A stretch of DNA of 33,656 bases from a virus (taxonomy: Duplodnaviria > Caudoviricetes): positions 1 through 33,656 of IMG/VR virus record IMGVR_UViG_3300024331_000081; one strand, written 5' to 3'. A program made the position numbers and the translations under genes. Positions 1,119 through 32,069 of this stretch are shown one piece after another; position 1 is the stretch's first letter, and each line of letters starts with the position of its first letter. The notes beneath the pieces are model-generated. The model made no database searches. It had not been told where the DNA came from and worked only from the letters and a program-made list of their open reading frames with translations.

Positions 1119-1412
1119 TTAGCGACCTGGATCTTCCTGAGTTGCAGGCATGGGTATGGGTCCGGGACTGGGATTGTAGACCCCATCGGTCGGAATCTTC
1201 ATTGGGAAGCGGTCAACGAGCTCGTTGTAGGTCTCATAGTACAGAAGGCACAAGAGATCGTTGAGACGATCGTCCTGGAGATAGACCGTATCTCCTGCGA
1301 GCTTGTCTTTAACTATAAAGGTCTTATCTACAGACCCCGTGTGCAGAGCCCGCAGAATCTCCATACGCTCGATCAGTTGTTTAGGTGAGAGATGTTTAAG
1401 GTCCGCTCTCAT
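1119..1412 (-). CDS. hypothetical protein
   Basis: 97-aa ORF overlapping the end of the NYN gene. Confidence 0.65.
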   Translation of the reverse strand: MRADLKHLSPKQLIERMEILRALHTGSVDKTFIVKDKLAGDTVYLQDDRLNDLLCLLYYETYNELVDRFPMKIPTDGVYNPSPGPIPMPATQEDPGR

Positions 1413-1956
1413 TCCGATTCCTTTCCAATAGGGTTCGAAGGTCCTTCATGTCTATGTAGCTATCTGCGGCAAAACGCAGATCGTCAGCGCAGGTGTCTTT
1501 GCTTGAGATGACGATCACGCGCTTGCCTAGGTCTTGGAGGTAGTTGACTAATACACAGAAGTCTCCGTCCCCGCTAAGGAGAACGAAGTTGTCCACACTT
1601 GGGGCTAACTGAACGGCTTTGATAGTCATGTCAACGTCAACGTTGCCCTTAGTGTACTGCTCGCCAGAGACACTTGTTAACGTCTTACTGGGCTTCGAGA
1701 CGATACAGTAGCCGTTGTAGCCTAGGAAGGAAACGAGGGACCTCACAGGGTCCCTCTCTCCTCTGTCTCCATCGTCCATGAGAGCAGTGAAGTAGTATGC
1801 TCTCACAAGCGTGGTATGCTTACGAAACGTGGAGAGCAGCTTCTGGTAGTCCATCTCGTACCCTGCTCTCCGGCAGGCTTGGTAGTGGTTCGCACCGTCA
1901 ATGAGGATGACGGTACGAGCGCCTTCCTTGATATGTTCCGAGATAAGATTCGACAC
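1396..1956 (-). CDS. NYN-domain (LabA/DUF88, PIN-like) protein
   Basis: motifs ILIDGANH, KGNVDVDM, LLSGDGDF..LV..L...GKRV, LRFAADSYID. Confidence 0.9.
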   Translation of the reverse strand: MSNLISEHIKEGARTVILIDGANHYQACRRAGYEMDYQKLLSTFRKHTTLVRAYYFTALMDDGDRGERDPVRSLVSFLGYNGYCIVSKPSKTLTSVSGEQYTKGNVDVDMTIKAVQLAPSVDNFVLLSGDGDFCVLVNYLQDLGKRVIVISSKDTCADDLRFAADSYIDMKDLRTLLERNRNESGP

Positions 1957-5779: not shown

Positions 5780-6196
5780 TTAGTTCTTGGCCACGATCGG
5801 CTTCGGAAGAACACGAAGGATCTTGTGGGTCCGTTCGTCCTCCTGAGCCTTCGGCCTTCCAGGTCCTCTACTTCCTTGGGATTTTAGAGGGTGCTGGATG
5901 ACATTGTTAACATGCTGTGGTCTCATCTGCCAGCCTCTGAGTTCAGTAATGATCGAGGCGATCGATGAGTTCTTGAAACCCTGGTCGTGAAGGTACCTTA
6001 TCTTGGCAGACCAGTTAGGAGCCTCCATGAGTCCTGCTACGATCGAATCGATCTCAGGGTCTTGGGTCGAAGGGATTCCCTGGCTCTTGAGCTGGTTTGC
6101 TACTACCTCCTCTTGAGGTAGGGGTGTCTCACTTTCGCTCTCCGCTTCAGTGTCGACTGGGGGCTCGTCGTTACTCTTGCGTCTGGCCTTAGCCAC
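5780..6196 (-). CDS. small HTH-like DNA-binding protein (family member 4)
   Basis: SAKIRYLHDQGFKNSSIA...MRPQHVNNVI motif; GAGGAG RBS. Confidence 0.7.
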   Translation of the reverse strand: MAKARRKSNDEPPVDTEAESESETPLPQEEVVANQLKSQGIPSTQDPEIDSIVAGLMEAPNWSAKIRYLHDQGFKNSSIASIITELRGWQMRPQHVNNVIQHPLKSQGSRGPGRPKAQEDERTHKILRVLPKPIVAKN

Positions 6197-12121: not shown

Positions 12122-12532
12122 CTATTCCTTCCTTCCGGTTAGTCTGCGATAGCGGAGTATACTTTGCTCCACTTTGGAGATCGGGATCTCAGGGTTCAGC
12201 ATGACTCGGTTCTTGTTATCTTTAATGAGGTAACTCTGGATGATCTTTTGTTCGTCGCTGTTGAACGGTAGTTTCTGGATTGACGGTACTTGTAGTAAGC
12301 GAGCAAGGACTGCTGTAGGCATCTTGGGTTTCAGGCGCTCCTCTGTACCTTCTTTCTGCATCCGTTCGTGGTGTTCTTGGAGCGATTCCACCTTGATCAC
12401 TTTACCTGTTGTTTTGGATATTAGGATCTTTGGTCGGTAGAAACGCTCTTCCAGCTTCGTCATCTGGTTCTTGAGCTTACGTTTATGGTTACGAACGATG
12501 TTCCGCTTTCCTTGTAACCATCGACTCGCCAT
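12122..12532 (-). CDS. basic hypothetical protein
   Basis: 136 aa, K/R-rich, GAGG RBS. Confidence 0.65.
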   Translation of the reverse strand: MASRWLQGKRNIVRNHKRKLKNQMTKLEERFYRPKILISKTTGKVIKVESLQEHHERMQKEGTEERLKPKMPTAVLARLLQVPSIQKLPFNSDEQKIIQSYLIKDNKNRVMLNPEIPISKVEQSILRYRRLTGRKE

Positions 12533-12559: not shown

Positions 12560-12844
12560 TTACCCTTCGTATTTGACCGCGTGGATCTCTAGGTACGCTC
12601 GACCTTCGTCGATTCTCTGAGGACACCGGTAGATCTGGTATTCGTCGTCATCGTATTCGTGTTGTGGGGTCCATTGGATCTCCTGCTCTAAAAAACCTTC
12701 TGGAAGAAGCATGCCGTGGAAAGCGTGGTCCTTCGCTGCTTCCAATGTTTTGAAGGCTTCTGGAGTTAAGAGGCCAGTGTTGAACTCTTCGTCTTCGTTG
12801 TCCGCGTAGTTAACGAACATCAGGTACACGTGTGTGTTGGTCAT
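12560..12844 (-). CDS. acidic hypothetical protein
   Basis: 94 aa; ATGA-coupled; AFKTLEAAK motif. Confidence 0.65.
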   Translation of the reverse strand: MTNTHVYLMFVNYADNEDEEFNTGLLTPEAFKTLEAAKDHAFHGMLLPEGFLEQEIQWTPQHEYDDDEYQIYRCPQRIDEGRAYLEIHAVKYEG

Positions 12845-13083
12845 CGTGTTAGACCCTTGTAGTTATGGTAATACTTCAGGAACTTTCTCATTTCTCGCTG
12901 CATTACGTGCTTTGGTACGCTCTGCAGATGGTTGAACAGTCTCATCGTTACCAGGAAAGTGATCGCCTTTTCTACATCGGCGTCGCTAACAATCGAATCC
13001 GGTATGCTGAAAGGCTGTGGTTGTTCGCTTTCCTTAGGACGGTTCTTAAGTTTTCTCCAATATCCGTCGCTACCGTTGCTCAT
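12841..13083 (-). CDS. hypothetical protein
   Basis: start trimmed to MSNGSDG because the longer ORF reads through the promoter. Confidence 0.55.
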   Translation of the reverse strand: MSNGSDGYWRKLKNRPKESEQPQPFSIPDSIVSDADVEKAITFLVTMRLFNHLQSVPKHVMQREMRKFLKYYHNYKGLTR

Positions 13084-13132
13084 GTTTACCGGCTTTCGGG
13101 TTAGATGGTATTTTGGAGATTGTTTTTTATTT

Positions 13133-13192
13133 ATTTTATAGCGTTTTTTAGTGGTTTTCAAGAGTTATTTTATGGTCATTTTATGGTTTTTT
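13133..13192 (-). promoter_or_regulatory. sigma70-like early promoter
   Basis: AAAATAACTC-TTGAAA-17 bp-TAAAAT with phased A-tracts upstream. Confidence 0.7.
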
Positions 13193-13278
13193 GATGGGCG
13201 CCCGTCAATTGGGAGGCCCGTTGGTTTGTTGTTTGTTTGTTAATTCCTTTACTTCATAAAATGGGGAAACTAAAATTC

Positions 13279-13584
13279 TTTACTGATGGATAGATGGTTA
13301 ACTTATTGATTCTATTAAGTGTTTACTTTTATTTACTTTCTTTGGTTATTCCTCTAAGAAGAAGACATTGAAAAAAGTTAATATAGGAAAATGTTATTGG
13401 TGGGAATGGAGATATTCTGTAAATATGGCGGGAAGAGCGAGGGCGACATGTACATAGGAGGAATAGGCGAAATGTAGTATATTAACTTTTTTAAGAGAAA
13501 ATAGAGAAGATACCGGAGTAACGTAAAGTCAAGATAACTAAACCTTAATGATTTCAAAGAGTTAACCATCCAAAGATCAGTAAA
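13279..13584. repeat. long imperfect AT-rich inverted repeat (~305 bp)
   Basis: paired blocks TTTACTGAT/ATCAGTAAA, GATGGTTAACT/AGTTAACCATC, ATTAAG/CTTAAT, AAAAAAGTTAATATA/TATATTAACTTTTTT in nested order. Confidence 0.85.
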
Positions 13585-13840
13585 CGCAAACTAAAGTCTT
13601 TAGTGGGAAACTAAAGCGTGGGCCCTGGGTACCCGAACGGACCTGAGCACTCGTTGTTCCCTGACTTGCATCCAGAGGCCCGACTTACGAAAAACTGCCG
13701 TGCCTTATGGACGGGTTGGGTCAGACTAAGGATCCTACCTAGGCAGGGTGAGGGATAGGGGCCATTCCACCGTTAAACGGGGGCACCTGGTTTGCTGGTT
13801 CGGTCAAAAATAACCGGCGCTGGGCGCCTCCTTCGTAGTG

Positions 13841-13880
13841 GGTATAATGGGTAGCCTCCGTGGGAGGCTACCTATATACC
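13841..13880 (-). terminator. stem-loop after 13880 gene
   Basis: GGTAGCCTCC-GTG-GGAGGCTACC extended by GGTATA/TATACC. Confidence 0.55.
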
Positions 13881-14062
13881 TACTCCAGTGGATCTAGGTC
13901 GAACCGCTTCTGCAGGTTAATGCAGTGCTCGATCGTTTCCTGGTCATCCCGAACGGCTGCTGCCTCTCCGGGGATGCCCTCTTTCTCGTGGATCTCGTCG
14001 TAGCAGTTGTCGTAGAGCATCTTGAGAGCGCTCCACATTACCCGTTTCTCGTGTTCGTTCAT
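13880..14062 (-). CDS. hypothetical protein
   Basis: 60 aa, GAAGGT RBS. Confidence 0.6.
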   Translation of the reverse strand: MNEHEKRVMWSALKMLYDNCYDEIHEKEGIPGEAAAVRDDQETIEHCINLQKRFDLDPLE

Positions 14063-14085
14063 GTCTCAACCTTCTAGTTGACACC

Positions 14086-14118
14086 AGAAAAGGGCCGCTA
14101 GGTTTCCCTAGCAGCCCT
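14086..14118 (-). terminator. rho-independent terminator
   Basis: minus strand AGGGCTGCTAGG-GAAA-CCTAGCGGCCCT then TTTC; follows the 14149 gene. Confidence 0.75.
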
Positions 14119-14148
14119 CTTGCCTTGGCAGGCTATGCGCCGATGTGG

Positions 14149-14508
14149 CTACTTAGCCTGGTCTTCGACGATCGGCGCCGTGGACGGCTTGACTGCCGCC
14201 TTCTTCGCCTGCCACTCCGTGCGGATGTGGTTGACGTGCACCAGGTTCATGGGATCGCCGGCCTTCCGATTCGGGTTCCGCGCGCTGTCGGAATCGTACC
14301 GGATCTTGTCGGCGATTGCCCGGTTCGACCAGCCCTGTTCGAGCAGGTAGAACACCATGTCCTTCTTCGACGCGTTGGTCTCCGAAAGCCGCTGCAGCTC
14401 CTTGTTCGCCGCGGCATGCTGATCTTCCGTCGGCATGAAGCCGCGGGAAGTGTTCCCGGCGCGGGAAGTCGGGGTGAACGTTACGCTCGAGGCTGAACTC
14501 TGTGCCAT
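14149..14508 (-). CDS. small HTH-like protein (family member 3, ~63% GC)
   Basis: SKKDMVFYLLEQGWSNRAIA...MNLVHVNHI; AGGAG RBS; own promoter and terminator. Confidence 0.75.
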   Translation of the reverse strand: MAQSSASSVTFTPTSRAGNTSRGFMPTEDQHAAANKELQRLSETNASKKDMVFYLLEQGWSNRAIADKIRYDSDSARNPNRKAGDPMNLVHVNHIRTEWQAKKAAVKPSTAPIVEDQAK

Positions 14509-14601
14509 GTTTTGCTCCTGGCCACTATGGCCGTAGGGTTGAAAGGAAACCGCTGTGCCCCAATTGTTGATTGGGTTTGGGGTCTGATTTATTATGATAT
14601 T

Positions 14602-14665
14602 ATTATATAGCGTTATTTAGGCGTTCTCAAGGGTTATTTTTAGGTTCTTGAGAGTTTTTTGCTCG
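14602..14665 (-). promoter_or_regulatory. sigma70-like early promoter
   Basis: CGAGCAAAAAACTC...AAAAATAACCC-TTGAGA-17 bp-TATAAT. Confidence 0.85.
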
Positions 14666-14842
14666 GCTATGGGCGCAACTGCGTCCTAAGGTACTTGTGA
14701 TCAGGATGTTGTTGATGCCAGCGATCGAGGGCCGATTGCGCTTCCCGAAGGGAGCGGAACATGCCAGGGATTTTTACCCAGCCGTCCAAAGTGTTGCGCT
14801 CTACGACCCAATACAACGACCAATAATGGCTCATACACCACC

Positions 14843-15040
14843 TCAGTTAGTTCGGGCGCCCCCCTTGAACTTCAGGAGGGCAGAACGAAGGGCATCCAGC
14901 CAACGCTTATGCATGGGCAGGTCCTCCGCTGATGGGGTTCGAGCTTCCGACACTTCGACCATGTGCTCCAACGAAAGGATGGTCACTTGGGTCTCTTCCG
15001 CCGTTAGCTCAGAGAAGATGTATTCTGACTGTTCCGCCAT
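14843..15040 (-). CDS. hypothetical protein
   Basis: 65 aa, AAGGAGG RBS. Confidence 0.65.
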   Translation of the reverse strand: MAEQSEYIFSELTAEETQVTILSLEHMVEVSEARTPSAEDLPMHKRWLDALRSALLKFKGGARTN

Positions 15041-15106
15041 AGTCCTCCTTTGACTGCAGCCGTAGGTTTTACCGCTGCTCCCGTTAACGATGAACCCCTT
15101 CGGCTC

Positions 15107-15143
15107 ATCGAATAGACCTCCGGCTCGCAGAGGTCTATTCGAT
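15107..15143 (-). terminator. stem-loop
   Basis: perfect 14-bp stem ATCGAATAGACCTC/GAGGTCTATTCGAT after the 15166 gene; no U-tract. Confidence 0.5.
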
Positions 15144-15165
15144 ATTCCGTAGTTAGGTTAGCTGG

Positions 15166-15639
15166 TTAGAACTTACCTAACTTGAATCCCCCTTCGTACT
15201 TAGTTCGATTCGATTTACCTGCTTTAACCGTCTTACGTTTCTTTGGTTCCTCTTCTTCCTCTTTACCTATGTTCATCTTAATAACGTGGTTGATCTGTTT
15301 CAACCTTTCGATGGACTTACGTTTTCTGTGGTTTCTCATCCACTCCAGCGTAATTTCTACCGCGAATCCGTGTTTACAGTGATCCATGATAACCGTGAAC
15401 TCGGACATATCTATTTCATCGTAGATCTGTAAGACGCGCGCTAGGTGTCTCCACCACTCCGTGGGGAACTTCGTCTCTTCTGCTGCTTCTTCCATCATCC
15501 GGTTGATGTGAGCCTCCATCGACTCGTTCATCTTGGGACGGTAGAACTTGATCTCTCTTTCCGTGAGGGATCGGTTACCCTCTCTTTTCATTGCAGCGCG
15601 GTTGCGCTGTTGAACTTGTAACATGAATCTCGAGGTCAT
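15166..15639 (-). CDS. hypothetical charged protein
   Basis: start trimmed to MTSRF (AGGAG RBS); C-terminal YEGGFKLGKF. Confidence 0.7.
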   Translation of the reverse strand: MTSRFMLQVQQRNRAAMKREGNRSLTEREIKFYRPKMNESMEAHINRMMEEAAEETKFPTEWWRHLARVLQIYDEIDMSEFTVIMDHCKHGFAVEITLEWMRNHRKRKSIERLKQINHVIKMNIGKEEEEEPKKRKTVKAGKSNRTKYEGGFKLGKF

Positions 15640-15655
15640 TACTGATCTCCTGTAG

Positions 15656-15677
15656 TGGGGGAGCCGAAGCTCCCCCA
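15656..15677 (-). other. cUUCGg RNA hairpin between cistrons
   Basis: minus strand TGGGGGAGC-TTCG-GCTCCCCCA; no U-tract, so more likely a stability/processing element. Confidence 0.65.
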
Positions 15678-15685
15678 TACACTTG

Positions 15686-15913
15686 TTACAGGGTACCGAG
15701 GTACTTGAGGTAGTAATTGTAGAAGTACTGATCGCGGGTCGTGTCGAGACAGTACTTCATGATACACGCTTTCGACCAGGAATGATCGATACCGTAACAG
15801 AACGCTTCGAACTTCGACTTGAACACCTCGTCGATCTCGTTCACCTCGTCCTGGGTAACAACCACGTTACCAGTGTACTTGTTATTCGAGGAACGCTTCA
15901 CGATTTTCAACAT
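15686..15913 (-). CDS. small HTH-like protein (family member 2, paralogue of 16478-16708)
   Basis: 75 aa MLKIVKRSS...; 44/75 identities to 16478-16708 by hand; start trimmed. Confidence 0.85.
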   Translation of the reverse strand: MLKIVKRSSNNKYTGNVVVTQDEVNEIDEVFKSKFEAFCYGIDHSWSKACIMKYCLDTTRDQYFYNYYLKYLGTL

Positions 15914-15976
15914 GTTACACCTGTACCTTTGGGTTAATAAAGTTTGTTTGGGTAGGTTTTTTATTATTATGTTTAT

Positions 15977-16041
15977 ATTATATAGGGTTATTTTTGGGGT
16001 CTCAAGAGTTATTTTTGGGGTAGATAAGAGTTTTTTGCTCG
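15977..16041 (-). promoter_or_regulatory. sigma70-like early promoter with 22-bp internal repeat
   Basis: CGAGCAAAAAACTC-TTATCT-ACCCCAAAAATAACTC-TTGAGA-CCCCAAAAATAACCCTA-TATAAT. Confidence 0.85.
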
Positions 16042-16429
16042 TCTGCCAAGCGAAACAAGGGGAAGGGCGGGCCCAAGGAAGGGCGCCCGACCACCCAGGG
16101 GTCCAGGGGCAGTTGGCTCCCTGTAAGGAATGGCACCGCGGGGACCCGGAACGCCGGGTTAAAGAAAACCCCGCCACAAAGGGCGGGGGTTCTTACCGGG
16201 TGTCCGGAGGGGAGGGTCACCAGTTGACCTCTAGGACCCAGCGGGGACGGATTATCCGGAATCCCCGTCTCCATAAGTGGAACCGGGGAACGTACCATGC
16301 CCTGGTACAGTAGTATTGTACCCTCATAACCGGGTACCGAAGTACATTGCAACACAGATACACCCAGCAACCGCGAAATAACCGATCAGACCCAGGATCA
16401 AACCGTTGAACATTACACACCCCTTTCGT

Positions 16430-16463
16430 AAAAGAAAGATCGGAAGCTTACGCTTCCGATCTT
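16430..16463 (-). terminator. rho-independent terminator
   Basis: perfect 12-bp stem AAGATCGGAAGC-GTAA-GCTTCCGATCTT then TCTTTT on minus. Confidence 0.8.
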
Positions 16464-16477
16464 CCGTTCTTCCGTTC

Positions 16478-16708
16478 TTACTTTTTGGAAGCTTCGTACT
16501 TTAGTAAGTAATTATGAAAGTACTGATCACGTTCTGTGTTCAAACAGTACTTCATAATCGATTTTTTGGTCCAACCTTTTTCGATACCATAACAGAAAGC
16601 TTCGAACTTACTATTGAACACTTGTTCAATTTTGGAAGCTTGTTCGTCCGTAAGAACGATCGTTCCATTGTACTTGTTCGAAACTTTACGATTTACGATC
16701 TTTAACAT
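16478..16708 (-). CDS. small HTH-like protein (family member 1, ~34% GC)
   Basis: 76 aa; AAAGGT RBS; paralogue of 15686-15913. Confidence 0.85.
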   Translation of the reverse strand: MLKIVNRKVSNKYNGTIVLTDEQASKIEQVFNSKFEAFCYGIEKGWTKKSIMKYCLNTERDQYFHNYLLKYEASKK

Positions 16709-16730
16709 TTTACTTACCTTTCATTTTACT

Positions 16731-16772
16731 GTAAGATCGAAATGTAAAAAACATTTTTTACACTTCTCTTAC
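16731..16772. promoter_or_regulatory. AT-rich palindrome at the divergence point
   Basis: TGTAAAAAA-CA-TTTTTTACA (16743-16762) nested in GTAAGA/TCTTAC. Confidence 0.55.
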
Positions 16773-16859
16773 GTACATTTGCACCTGAATTCTCTACCCA
16801 AAATGGGAAATCCCGCAGAAAAGGGGGAGTGTGCCTATTCGTACAAAGCGCAATACTCA

Positions 16860-16923
16860 AAAAAGAATCTTATGGTCGCCCTCAATTTTCTTCTTGACCG
16901 CCCAAATGCCCATGTATTATAAT
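16860..16923 (+). promoter_or_regulatory. rightward sigma70-like promoter for the packaging/lysis arm
   Basis: AAAAAGAATCTTATGG box, TTGACC-18 bp-TATAAT. Confidence 0.75.
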
Positions 16924-16953
16924 CTATGGAGAATCACAGAGGCGCATCACATA

Positions 16954-18546
16954 GTGTACGGCTCCGCTCCCAACCAGCAAAACCAGCCCCAACAGGGTCG
17001 GGGGCTCCAAGTGCATCAGTCCCCGTCCTCCACCTCGGTCAAAATCACTCGGGCAGATATCGTCCGGGAAGCCTCCAGACGTGTGCCACTTAACCAGCTA
17101 GGCCTCCCAGAAGGCTTCCACCGCTCAGACCTCCTACATACAGACTGCGTGAAGAAGGTGCTCACCCAAGATGAGCTCATGCGGTCTCCCAACGACCCAC
17201 ACATCGACCTCTCACGAGGCATCCTCACGGATGAAGGCCCTCTCCTCATCCTTGACGAGCGGCTCATCCGTCTTGCCTACGTCCCTCTGGACTATCGTGA
17301 GAACTTCCCGACTCTCCCAAACTCTGGTCAACCGTTCTGGGCGCAGCTAGACTTCGAGCCCACCGAAGCCTTCAAAGCTTTCGAGGCCTATCTCAAGCAA
17401 GGTACCGATGAAGGTGCTCGACGTCTCTTCGCCTTGGCATGTATCCCCAGTATCCAGGCGCTCACCGGTGCTTCACTACCACCCTACCCTAATGGGAACG
17501 GCAACGGCTATGACTACCGGCCAGCTACTCCTAGCAGCTACCGTGGCGGCCCTCGTCCTGTGCACGATCCTGGGCAAGTCCCTGGTCGCGAGGGACGAAG
17601 AGAGACGCAGGAGGGAGCATATGGCCCGCAAGGAGCTCGACCGGCTCCGCAAGTTGGGTCCTCGCCAGGGCCAACCTCCGCCCACCCCACCCAAACCACC
17701 GAAGATCGTGAATACGAAAGATCCCGAGAATTAGCACTGCAGGCTAACCGACAACTACAAGAGTGGCATACCATCTACTACTGGGGGCCTCGTTCACGTT
17801 CCCACGATCTGTTCTATTTGGATGGGATCCGTCAGGGCCAAGTTATGCGCGCCCTCCATCTGCAGAACGATCACTTCAGGGACGCAACAAAGCTCTACAA
17901 CGACGTCCTGGCTTTCATCCACGGAGAGGTGGACGGCTCCACTACCGAAGATGGCGTCCCAAGATTCTGGGCAGAGATGTCTCCCAGAGTCCTGGTCGAC
18001 TTCATGAAAGTCTTATCACAAATGCAGCGGCTCTCCCTAGGGCTGCCTGCAGCACAGACACCGAATATTGATAGCCCTTCCAACGTTATCAATATTCTGA
18101 GATCGCTCGTGGGAGCTGGTGTTGAAGGCGGTGCACCAAGCGGCGGAAGGCTGGGGGCGGCTTTCCTAAGCGGGTTAGGAAGCAACACTTCAGCCGGCTC
18201 CCGCGGGCGACCCCGTACAGCGTACGACGAGAACAACAACCTGATCTCTCAGTCGCAGTCGACAGGGAGCTCCACCGCGGCCTCGCAGACCCTGAGCGCG
18301 AGTCATGGGTCAGCCGGAAGTCAGGGGATGCCTGGAGACATCTCAGATGAGGATCGGGTCCGTCGTATCTCGATGCTGTTTAACACTGCGAAAGCTCGTC
18401 GCGAGGCTAACAGGCCTAATCCCCAAGCGGCCTCCCCTGACCCAGAACCCGATCCCCGCCCAGACCCCGAACCCGAACAACGCGAACTCGAACTCGAACT
18501 TACTCCCGCCCCAGACGAACAGGAGTACCCAGATGCCCCAAGGTGA
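16954..18546 (+). CDS. putative terminase small subunit-like protein with low-complexity insertions
   Basis: FWAQLDFEPTEAFKAFEAYL..G...R ... L.EW...YYW..R...D resembles the W.R..GE...AF.AF..Y / W..RA.A.D TerS-like family; upstream of terL; GTG start chosen downstream of the promoter. Confidence 0.55.
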   Translation: MYGSAPNQQNQPQQGRGLQVHQSPSSTSVKITRADIVREASRRVPLNQLGLPEGFHRSDLLHTDCVKKVLTQDELMRSPNDPHIDLSRGILTDEGPLLILDERLIRLAYVPLDYRENFPTLPNSGQPFWAQLDFEPTEAFKAFEAYLKQGTDEGARRLFALACIPSIQALTGASLPPYPNGNGNGYDYRPATPSSYRGGPRPVHDPGQVPGREGRRETQEGAYGPQGARPAPQVGSSPGPTSAHPTQTTEDREYERSRELALQANRQLQEWHTIYYWGPRSRSHDLFYLDGIRQGQVMRALHLQNDHFRDATKLYNDVLAFIHGEVDGSTTEDGVPRFWAEMSPRVLVDFMKVLSQMQRLSLGLPAAQTPNIDSPSNVINILRSLVGAGVEGGAPSGGRLGAAFLSGLGSNTSAGSRGRPRTAYDENNNLISQSQSTGSSTAASQTLSASHGSAGSQGMPGDISDEDRVRRISMLFNTAKARREANRPNPQAASPDPEPDPRPDPEPEQRELELELTPAPDEQEYPDAPR

Positions 18547-23977: not shown

Positions 23978-24177
23978 CAGAGTGCTTCGATCTCATCATT
24001 AAGGGATCGGGGTACGCGGAATCTGCCTGGAATATCCTCAACCAATGCGCCATTGAAGGGCGAGACCTGACAGACGAGGAGGTTGAAGAGTTCGACGACC
24101 TGATGGACTCTGCCCGTGACGACCTAGAGGGTCCTAGATTGGCTGTGGACCTCGGAAAGGATAAGATTTATGCCTGA
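23953..24177 (+). CDS. acidic hypothetical protein
   Basis: 74 aa; EGRDLTDEEVEEFD. Confidence 0.6.
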   Translation: MQIRSEVLTECFDLIIKGSGYAESAWNILNQCAIEGRDLTDEEVEEFDDLMDSARDDLEGPRLAVDLGKDKIYA

Positions 24178-25633
24178 ATTCGCTTTCGCCCCCAGCGAAA
24201 ACTACGAAGACGAGGATGACCATATCAAGCTTGGCGAGGGAATGGTCCTGGATTTGGGCAGTGCCGTCGTCAATGCTAACAAGGCTGCAGCAAAATTCGT
24301 CAAAAATCGCAACTTTCAAGCAGCGAAAATCGCGCTTTGCAGAGCTTTGACGGTAGATCAGGAGAATTCTGAGCTCTGGACGAACCTATCCTCGGTCTTA
24401 TGGGGTCTCAGAGCATACGAAGACGCTTTTACTGCAGCTACGACTGCTTGTCAGCTATCTGGCGCCCGAATCATGGGACCCGTCCGCTTAAGAGCCTTTC
24501 TAGCGCTCGCAAACTCGCTGGTTTCGCTCGGAAAACGCGAAGATGCTCTCCAAGCTTTCGGATATATCATCCGGAGTGCAGAAGAATTGGGAGAAGATTC
24601 CGAAGGTATGGCCTCGATCCTCCGAGATGCCTACTGGAATCGGACCTTATTGCTGCTTAGTCTAGGCAGATACGACGAGGGTTGGGAAAAGTATCACCTC
24701 CGTATCGACAAGGACAAAGTCGATGAGGAACTGGATCTCAAGCGCTACGGGGATTATGCACCTTTATGGAACGGAGAACCTCTTCGTGACCAGACTATTC
24801 TCGTACATCATGACCAGGGTTATGGTGACACTATCCTGCATTCGCGCTTCCTACATAATCTGGTTGGCGAGGCGAAACAGGTATATTTTGCCACCGCTCC
24901 TGATCTTGTCCCACTTTTTTGGGATTTTACAGAAGAGGGGCCGGGTGTACAATTTGTCCACCAGAGAGTCCCCCTTCCTCGAGTTGATAAGCGTGTGTAT
25001 CTGGGTTCTATTCCCAGTATCCTTTATCGTGACCGTACTTGGGTTACTCCTCCTAAGCCATCTCCTTTGATCCTTAGTCGCGCAACCAAGGATTTAGGTA
25101 CGCCAAGGGCCATAGAACTCAGCGAACCCGGCGTGCATCCGCATCTAAAAGTAGGTGTAGTGTGGTCCGGAAGGCCCGATTTCGTGCGAAACGACGAGCG
25201 TCAGGTGCCCCTCAAGATGCTCGCAAGCCTGACTGAGAACCCTCATATCTGGCTGTACTCACTACAAGCCGGACCGAAGGCTAAGGAGCTGTACGACCTC
25301 GGAATCGAGTCGTTTGTCCGGGATCACTCAGACGAAATCGACCAAAAAGGCTGGGTAGGTACTGCTACTGCAATGTTACAGTGCGATTTGGTGCTGACTT
25401 GCTGCACATCCACTGCGCATTTGGCGGGCAGCCTCTTCGTACCTACCTGGGTTATGCTCGGTACCGACCCCTATTGGCCTTGGGGTGTACTGGGTGAGAC
25501 CACTCCTTGGTACCCCACAGTACGCCTGTTTAGACAAAGCCCCGACCGCCGCGGAGACTGGTCTCACGTTATCGAGACAGTCCGAGCAGAGCTGAATAAG
25601 TTTCTTAGCGAGAAGGCTTCCAGAAATGCCTGA
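24170..25633 (+). CDS. TPR-repeat glycosyltransferase (GT9/GT-B-like)
   Basis: N-terminal TPRs; LWNGEPL...[66 protein letters not shown]. Confidence 0.88.
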
Positions 25634-31168: not shown

Positions 31169-31456
31169 ATGCCCAACGACACGCCCCCACAGGTCGTTCA
31201 ACAAGCACCTCAGCAGGTCCAGATCTCAGGAGATACTGACGTACCTATCGTCTTCCAGGCTCAAATGTGGCAACAGATTGTGCAAGTACTGGCCAAGGGG
31301 CCCTACGAAGTTGTAGCTGGACCGATCCAGAGCATCAATTCTCAGATAATAGAGTTCGCGCAGAGACAACAGCAACAGCAACAGCAACAACAGTCTCCTC
31401 CCCTGCCCCAGAAGCCTCTTGCCAACGGACACGATCCTGATGGCGTACAACAGTGA
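31169..31456 (+). CDS. small protein with polyQ tract
   Basis: AGGAG RBS; LAKGPYEVVA..I..I motif; nine-Gln run coded by mixed CAA/CAG. Confidence 0.7.
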   Translation: MPNDTPPQVVQQAPQQVQISGDTDVPIVFQAQMWQQIVQVLAKGPYEVVAGPIQSINSQIIEFAQRQQQQQQQQQSPPLPQKPLANGHDPDGVQQ

Positions 31457-32069
31457 CATCTTCGATGTTCGATCGCCTTCAGAGGCGAAGAACATCATCC
31501 TGACTCCTCAGGACGGTCTTACTCCTGAACAGCGTTGGAGGACTGAGACTCCCTACCTTGTAGAACTGATCCACAACCACACCAACAAGGGGTCGTTCGT
31601 GCTCGACTACGGGTGTGGGATTGGCCGTCTCTCTAAAGAGATGGTCAACGTAGGCAGGTATGTTACCGGGGTCGACATTTCCTGGTCCATGCGGGCCCTC
31701 GCGAACGACAATGTCAGGTCAGAGAGGTTCATGGACTGCTCTCCGGAGTGGTTCTACCAGCTGATGCTCGTCGGCAAAATGGGGTACGATCTTGGTCTAG
31801 CCGTGTGGACTTTGCAACACTGTGAAAACCCGGAAAAAGACATCTACCTTATCCAGCAAGCCCTCACGCCCCGAGCAGGGCAACTGTTCGTCGTTAACAA
31901 TAGGCGGCGTGTCGTTCCAACCGATAAAGGTTGGGTCGACGACGGTCTAGACATTGATAGCATGTTACGTGAGGCCTGTAAAGAATGCCTTTTCAAAGAT
32001 GTACTAGACCCGAATATTGTAGGACCAGTAGTATCGGGCAATACGTTCTGGGCCGTATACCAATTTTAG
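31440..32069 (+). CDS. class I SAM-dependent methyltransferase
   Basis: VLDYGCGIGRL motif I, GVDIS.SM; start trimmed to ATG 31440. Confidence 0.85.
   Translation: MAYNSDIFDVRSPSEAKNIILTPQDGLTPEQRWRTETPYLVELIHNHTNKGSFVLDYGCGIGRLSKEMVNVGRYVTGVDISWSMRALANDNVRSERFMDCSPEWFYQLMLVGKMGYDLGLAVWTLQHCENPEKDIYLIQQALTPRAGQLFVVNNRRRVVPTDKGWVDDGLDIDSMLREACKECLFKDVLDPNIVGPVVSGNTFWAVYQF

Follow-up and report, generated by a model that had tools for sequence, protein, structure and literature searches.

Phage T5 carries a long terminal repeat whose early genes enter the cell first, with untranslated inverted repeats near its inner end, as set out in 10.1101/866236; according to PMC10644984, the left repeat enters first and restriction sites matter mainly in this first-entering DNA. 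The host-takeover module of phage SPO1, described in PMC6873191, lies in a terminal region and consists of small early genes with high-expression promoters and ribosome sites. Here we describe a comparable region in a 33.7-kb fragment of a tailed phage (IMG/VR record IMGVR_UViG_3300024331_000081, positions 1 to 33,656; the whole of this stretch is referred to as the window). It contains three small genes, A, B and C, which an earlier note had read as copies of one early gene written in three nucleotide dialects, so that at least one would survive or be expressed whatever the host. We find that A and B encode closely related proteins in two synonymous compositions, B being the GC-richer of the two in each of three diverged phages. 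With a probability of roughly 0.45, we propose a relay in which the AT-rich tip copy, A, would start the infection programme and the codon-adapted copies, B and C, would amplify it.

Two synonymous compositions of one early gene

The three genes of the window are as follows.

16478 to 16708, minus strand: gene A, 76 residues, basic, predicted helix-turn-helix (HTH)-like; the AT-shifted copy, GC content 34.2%, third-position GC (GC3) 0.43
15686 to 15913, minus strand: gene B, 75 residues, paralogue of A; the GC-shifted copy, GC content 46.9%, GC3 0.76
14149 to 14508, minus strand: gene C, 119 residues, distant homologue with a Pro/Ala tail; GC content 62.5%, GC3 0.85

Our recount reproduced the figures of the earlier note: 44 identities over 75 residues between A and B, the three GC contents, three GpC dinucleotides in A (all within AAGCTT), four in B (three within AAGCGT), and a C gene rich in GCCG (7) and CGGC (6). 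The gradient that it suggested looking for in related phages was present in 3/3 loci, A being low, B higher and C high. The respective GC contents were 35.5, 50.6 and 63.9% in locus L001 and 26.8, 42.9 and 63.6% in L005, giving ranges across the three phages of 27–36% for A, 43–51% for B and 62–64% for C.

Within a phage the A and B proteins are 62–70% identical despite diverging synonymous composition. At residues identical between them, codon choice is GC-richer in B than in A by 12:1, 12:0 and 21:6 in the three phages (P = 0.003, 0.0005 and 0.006), and the A-to-B step in GC is mainly synonymous (0.12–0.14 of 0.13–0.17). Of the B-to-C step (0.12–0.20), amino-acid composition accounts for 0.10–0.12 and synonymous choice for 0.02–0.08; since this step is mostly a matter of amino acids, the genes use two dialects rather than the three that had been claimed. 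Synonymous GC bias was scored against 66 reference genes outside the repeat described below, chosen by eye and with one open reading frame (ORF) excluded for a frame error; L005 was scored against the codon usage of the window and G001. The bias of A (−1.07, −0.86 and −1.82) fell below all 66 reference genes (−0.74 to +0.90), that of C (+1.28, +1.49 and +0.91) lay at or above their maximum, and that of B was high in three of four genes. The AT shift includes the non-coding leader of A (21–29% GC) and ends at a GC-rich block. Because the genes between B and C have average synonymous composition, with no gradient with distance, a smooth GC gradient from the tip was rejected. Word-level vocabulary differs by phage: the window and L001 prefer GT and CG, and L005 prefers GG and CC.

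Against a GC-matched synonymous null, three or fewer GpC in A had P = 0.006 and four or fewer in B had P = 0.002. Low GpC was found in 7/8 A and B genes (z-scores of −1.9 to −2.7); A of L005 does not reach z ≤ −2. The three AAGCTT words of A simply mark its three Ala codons, each of which lies in frame 0 within Q/E-A-S/F. GpC avoidance as a property unique to A and B was weakened as an idea, z ≤ −2 being reached also by 6/71 other genes of two phages. The low GpC fits the WWC/SST codon rule, a pattern of well-expressed genes, for which 6/8 A and B genes have an index of 0.71–0.88.

Codon adaptation was computed against five highly expressed Sinorhizobium meliloti genes (ribosomal-protein and tuf genes), a stand-in that may not be the host's. 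It reached 0.52, 0.71 and 0.35 for B and 0.57, 0.54 and 0.47 for C, where phage genes have a mean of 0.33 and a maximum of 0.52; A of L005 had the lowest value. The window also encodes an NYN-domain protein (1396–1956, minus strand) whose closest matches in a plasmid collection are alphaproteobacterial, at 42–44% identity.

Layout and signals of the three cassettes

In the window, early-type genes occupy the minus strand to 16.7 kb and late genes the plus strand from about 16.9 kb; terminase large subunit, portal, endolysin and tail fibre genes are present, and the virus record is 38% complete. Soil metagenome runs contain this stretch, and none of the listed runs that contain it is an RNA dataset. 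Homologue scans confirmed 1/176 viral and 6/93 metagenome candidate stretches; for the A/B/C family the viral scans gave only G001 and one near-copy fragment, and the genome scans gave none. L001 and L005 are the only two diverged phages with loci long enough to judge layout. Their terS-like proteins are 53–54% identical to that of the window and stand in the same place. L002 to L004, a 100% match to B of the window, were left out. L006 holds a B-type gene at 50.4% GC flanked by copies of the promoter element, and L007 is a variant of the window; at positions 1064–1231 it has a version of B from which 19 codons are missing, with a short inverted stretch at the junction, which is probably an assembly chimera. 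Two enzyme-like genes lie among the tail and portal genes of the window (24170–25633 and 31419–32069, plus strand), presumably glycosyltransferase-like with TPR repeats and methyltransferase-like, respectively; the first has no PHROGs match.

All three long loci share one order: a divergent terS-like gene, A, a GC-rich block, a promoter, B, further genes, a second promoter, C and an AT-rich inverted-repeat block. The signals in the window are listed from the A end.

16781 to 16787, minus strand: conserved 7-nt motif upstream of A, where a sigma70 consensus promoter would be; invariant in 3/3 loci
16731 to 16772, minus strand: AT-rich leader hairpin directly before the ribosome site of A (z = −4.2)
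16424 to 16468, minus strand: terminator-like hairpin with a U-run after A
16324 to 16413, minus strand: hydrophobic ORF of 29 residues between A and B
16040 to 16215, minus strand: GC-rich block (68%) with a terminator-like hairpin at 16169–16188
15963 to 16037, minus strand: repeated 75-nt promoter element, B copy, 11/12 match to sigma70
15651 to 15681, minus strand: UUCG hairpin after B, without a U-run, the next gene's ribosome site behind it
14667 to 15639, minus strand: three small ORFs between B and C (157, 65 and 55 residues), of average composition
14588 to 14662, minus strand: repeated 75-nt promoter element, C copy, 11/12 match to sigma70
14086 to 14125, minus strand: terminator-like hairpin after C
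13119 to 13193, minus strand: third copy of the promoter element, just beyond the repeat, driving early genes

Each gene is followed by a hairpin of its own (z = −4.3 to −5.2), and B and C have consensus sigma70-type promoters within a shared element, of which 14 copies were aligned across four loci; on both points the earlier note was right. This element is missing before A in 3/3 phages, and no sigma70-type promoter able to serve A was matched within 150 nt. The leader hairpin of A recurs in the relatives (z = −4.6 and −2.6), with 5/21 consensus pairs changed on both sides in a compensatory manner. Comparable GC-rich blocks stand behind A in L001 and L005, so that 68–83% GC is reached within 100–300 nt in all three phages. 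An Rfam search gave five matches, all under the gathering score.

The cassettes had been described as separated by non-coding spacers, which was not borne out, given the ORFs that lie in both the A–B and the B–C interval. Hydrophobic ORFs of 28–29 residues directly follow an A or B gene in the window (16324–16413, minus strand) and in L005 (5515–5602). The spacers ahead of the promoters are C-rich with short repeats (L005 4780–7190; L001 8165–8403; L006 1–140 and 545–640) that differ by phage, one 10-mer family occurring eight times in L005, a 7-mer five times in L001 and another in L006. No spacer motif common to the phages was found; the phage-specific repeats could possibly be binding or Rho-loading sites. 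A second early family is also duplicated, with one copy outside the repeat (window 12122–12532) and one inside (15166–15639, minus strand); it has single relatives in L001 and L005 and no GC polarity. Behind the C terminator, about 244 nt (window 13832–14077) are skipped by contigs in 2/8 runs, which removes an ORF of 60 residues.

A probable terminal repeat with low-stability ends

Three further features bear on where the region stands in the phage chromosome.

13300 to 16850, no strand: probable long terminal repeat of about 3.5 kb with all three cassettes inside, from depth; ends approximate
13279 to 13584, no strand: AT-rich block between 41-nt inverted arms at the putative inner repeat end; arm motif kept in L001 and L005
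16831 to 18546, plus strand: divergent terS-like ORF at the boundary (weak PHROGs terS match, E = 0.042), with terL and portal genes downstream

In 6/8 runs, contig pieces lying mostly within 13.3–16.85 kb have 1.9–2.4 times the flanking depth; the other two runs gave only longer spanning pieces, with depth likewise raised. A two-level fit placed the ends at 13,300 and 16,850, with near-equal fits at 12,800–13,600 and 16,650–17,100, and left a residual of 1.0 versus 9.6 for a flat model, its ratio of 2.4 being at the top of the grid. Each fitted end falls on one of the two least stable 300-nt windows, namely the A unit and the inner inverted-repeat block, which occupy the same two ranks in 3/3 sequences; the block at 13279–13584 is the least stable of the contig. 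A 16-nt inverted match links the fitted ends (13432–13447 and 16875–16890), as an end signal or by chance.

This pattern points to a terminal repeat of about 3.5 kb with A at its tip, although it may reflect a pac-type start instead. The doubled depth agrees with the earlier suggestion of first-entering DNA, in that the region likely enters first. By analogy with the T5 left repeat, A would be the first gene to enter.

Basic, putatively HTH-like proteins of a small family

The homology of C to A and B, also proposed earlier, gave a profile–profile probability of only 22% with the first small alignment and of 82.5% (E = 1e-5, 88 columns) once bridging sequences were added; two proteins of 109 residues fuse the A/B core to a C-like tail. 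A possible fourth, remoter member of the C family lies outside the repeat (window 5780–6196, minus strand; G001 42290–42634; BLASTP E = 0.029), with average composition.

The model of B is confident, with a predicted local distance difference test (pLDDT) score of 89 and helices at 34–43, 48–55 and 61–74. Its residues 31–75 superpose on HTH domains with a root-mean-square deviation of about 2 over 42–46 residues, and most top structural rows are such domains (NarL/LuxR, Lrp, sigma region 4 and GcrA). Foldseek returned nothing at E ≤ 0.001, and for C (pLDDT 67) no match. No family reached threshold in Pfam, PHROGs, NCBIfam or PADLOC; in PHROGs, neither the three genes nor five other ORFs of the region had a family at E < 0.001. 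A sequence search of the PDB gave nothing; an Atlas search gave no usable match for A and, for C, leads all under 0.9. All 11 A, B and C proteins have an isoelectric point (pI) of 7.7–9.6, with A at 9.4–9.5. A and B are thus predicted to be basic, HTH-like proteins outside known families that may bind DNA, and the products of the three genes would most likely act on incoming phage DNA or on that of the host, by coating or regulating it.

The proposed relay

Under the relay, a demand placed on the DNA end would keep the DNA of A rich in AT, whether through easy strand opening for entry, for the first transcription or for processing of the repeat, and the loss of GC-rich restriction sites would be a side gain. 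A, which in two of three phages would retain translatable WWC/SST codons, would yield the first protein from the tip. Free of the end demand, B and C could be tuned to GC-rich host codons and, behind strong sigma70-type promoters, would provide the bulk output.

Several observations weigh against this proposal. B of L005 is not GC-shifted relative to the reference genes (−0.32), and the codon adaptation of A in the window and L001 (0.30 and 0.32) equals the phage average, so that A is not a poor gene. The S. meliloti stand-in is based on one NYN protein at 44% identity, and GANTC is undepleted in the phage (4.1–4.3 versus 1.8 per kb). In the window and L001, A also avoids long AT runs (P = 0.03 and 0.01), which easy melting alone does not predict, and the present data cannot separate melting from the loss of restriction sites. 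The structural matches are weak, with a best Z of 4.1. Gene order, synonymous polarity, promoter types and low-stability blocks are observed directly, whereas the terminal repeat, the order of entry, DNA binding and the division of labour are inferred. The termini derive from contig-mean depth in runs chosen for containing the stretch, 4/8 of which are possibly the window's own source.

Restriction sites and the hedging of bets

The original idea was that A and B are redundant, and that whichever spelling escapes host restriction, an AT-rich silencer or tRNA limits is expressed. We compared 545 distinct sites from the Biopython enzyme list with the GC-matched synonymous null. Sites common to A and B numbered 31, 29 and 25 in the three phages versus 29, 33 and 23 in the null, and palindromic ones 11, 11 and 8 versus 10, 10.5 and 8. 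The sites of A and B were therefore no more mutually exclusive than GC content predicts, matching the null in 3/3 phages with both site sets. Exclusivity fell below 0.05 in 0/12 palindromic and 2/12 all-site comparisons (both from L001, pairing A with C alone or with B and C), in a model that excludes Type I and III site geometry. ACGT, GATC, GTAC and TCGA are present in all three genes of two phages, and TCGA, GTAC and GATC are plentiful in A, where 4-mer palindromes reach z = +2.1 and +2.7 in two phages. The earlier note had itself named composition as an explanation that would undo its proposal; because shared A/B sites equal the null, this explanation largely holds for restriction sites.

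A one-sided effect was nevertheless apparent. A has 59, 51 and 56 distinct sites versus 96, 108 and 84 expected at a B-like bias, its AT shift thus removing a third to half of its sites, and 64/95, 72/101 and 53/78 of the sites of B are absent from A by virtue of its low GC. In L001, A is site-poor beyond GC (51 versus 73, P = 0.007). A is therefore site-poor through low GC, which is not a symmetric hedge. Nor was this probable first-entering DNA purged of sites, as the earlier note says such DNA often is, since 4-mer palindromes per kb in the repeat were mostly at or above the level outside; poverty in GC-rich sites is limited to the A unit, and the repeat and spacers are neither purged of palindromes nor enriched in them. 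Spacers as palindrome decoys were rejected (z = −1.8 to +1.3 across 12 spacers).

The 62–70% identity of proteins whose synonymous compositions diverge, the many B sites missing from A and the site-poor A of L001 would all suit interchangeable copies, and the AT-rich silencer MucR, reportedly present in Alphaproteobacteria (PMC9410896), would favour a GC-rich backup. However, the shared sites at null level, the four palindromes kept in all three genes of two phages and the unpurged repeat argue against them, and the fixed polarity (A always low, B higher), together with the different upstream structure of A, suits a division of labour better. We consider bet-hedging unlikely.

A stronger form of selection on the two spellings is possible, though doubtful: the site-poor tip copy would supply a DNA-protecting protein where the GC-rich copy is cut or not yet inside, the GC-rich copies would substitute where AT-rich DNA is silenced, and position would re-impose the spelling after gene conversion, as may have occurred in L005.

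Position, mutation and descent

A might also be a passenger of a cis-acting terminus, involved in packaging or repeat duplication, in which case the extra copy would add little beyond gene dosage and no relay would operate. Both fitted repeat ends are the least stable blocks, a conserved motif and hairpin lie at the fitted end, and A has no consensus promoter, all as this account expects. Yet in 3/3 phages the reading frame of A is intact and is served by a ribosome site and a terminator of its own, and 9/15 changed codons between two close variants are synonymous, which makes a passenger a rather poor explanation. Mutational bias eroding the GC of any gene at the chromosome end is highly improbable; the coding strand of A in L005 is only 9% C and AT-rich low-complexity DNA extends past its terminator, but GC recovers to 68–83% within 100–300 nt in all three phages, the genes between B and C show no distance gradient, and synonymous changes between close variants run in both directions.

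In the tree, A and B of L005 are sisters (support 96/92 and 95/92), and the copies of the window and L001 are not resolved. A single A clade was rejected by the approximately unbiased (AU) test at p = 0.042, which is marginal given that the group was named only once a first tree had been seen. A and B thus appear from the tree not to be two old clades. Because A of L005 is the sister of its own B, in at least one lineage the gene with the AT-rich spelling is most closely related to its GC-richer neighbour, and either had that spelling imposed on it or retained it. The family is tiny, with five representatives at E ≤ 1e-10 among 1.84 billion; no copy in bacterial genomes was confirmed, and a tblastn search of 50,697 GenBank phage records with B and C gave nothing at E ≤ 1. 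Separate import of A and B from donors of matching GC, with incomplete amelioration, is the least credible account, for although repeated promoter elements could shuffle cassettes and the tree leaves the window and L001 copies unresolved, the 27% GC copy of L005 groups with its own 43% partner, and neither bacterial genomes nor GenBank phages yielded a confirmed copy.

Comparison with known systems

The A/B contrast is a natural experiment, in which a nearly fixed protein is encoded by neighbours 600–800 nt apart whose synonymous compositions differ by 12–14 GC points. It would isolate a constraint at the DNA or RNA level on the first few hundred bases entering the cell, and bears on what an entering end requires, be it low stability, a scarcity of restriction sites or escape from silencers. 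If the two spellings are kept by selection, the phages would offer a natural case of recoding used to infect. The products, basic early phage proteins, belong to a small and so far undescribed family and are candidates for shielding incoming DNA. In the open-licence literature we found no description of a phage that maintains one gene in two synonymous compositions.

Ocr and ArdA, DNA-mimic anti-restriction proteins, are strongly acidic. A, B and C resemble them as small early genes in leading DNA but differ in being neutral to basic (pI 7.7–9.6 in 11/11). Three-helix HTH domains may be a likeness for the predicted structure of B, whose residues 31–75 superpose on them with Z at most 4.1. As in the first-step-transfer region of T5, early genes would lie in a long terminal repeat, here proposed from contig-mean depth, with an untranslated inverted-repeat block near the inner end (13279–13584, arm motif in 3/3). 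Unlike in T5, the repeat measures about 3.5 kb rather than 9.7 kb and is not purged of palindromes overall; no homologue of a T5 pre-early gene was found (PHROGs, E < 0.001; tblastn, E ≤ 1), and the available text of 10.1101/866236 and PMC10644984 does not describe a duplicated gene in two compositions. As in the SPO1 module, small genes stand in a probable terminal region behind repeated strong host-type promoters (14 element copies in four loci); no sequence relation to that module was found, and the content here is mainly one family, in three copies with fixed GC polarity. The A/B/C region, a member of neither system by homology, would work like the terminal early modules of T5 and SPO1.

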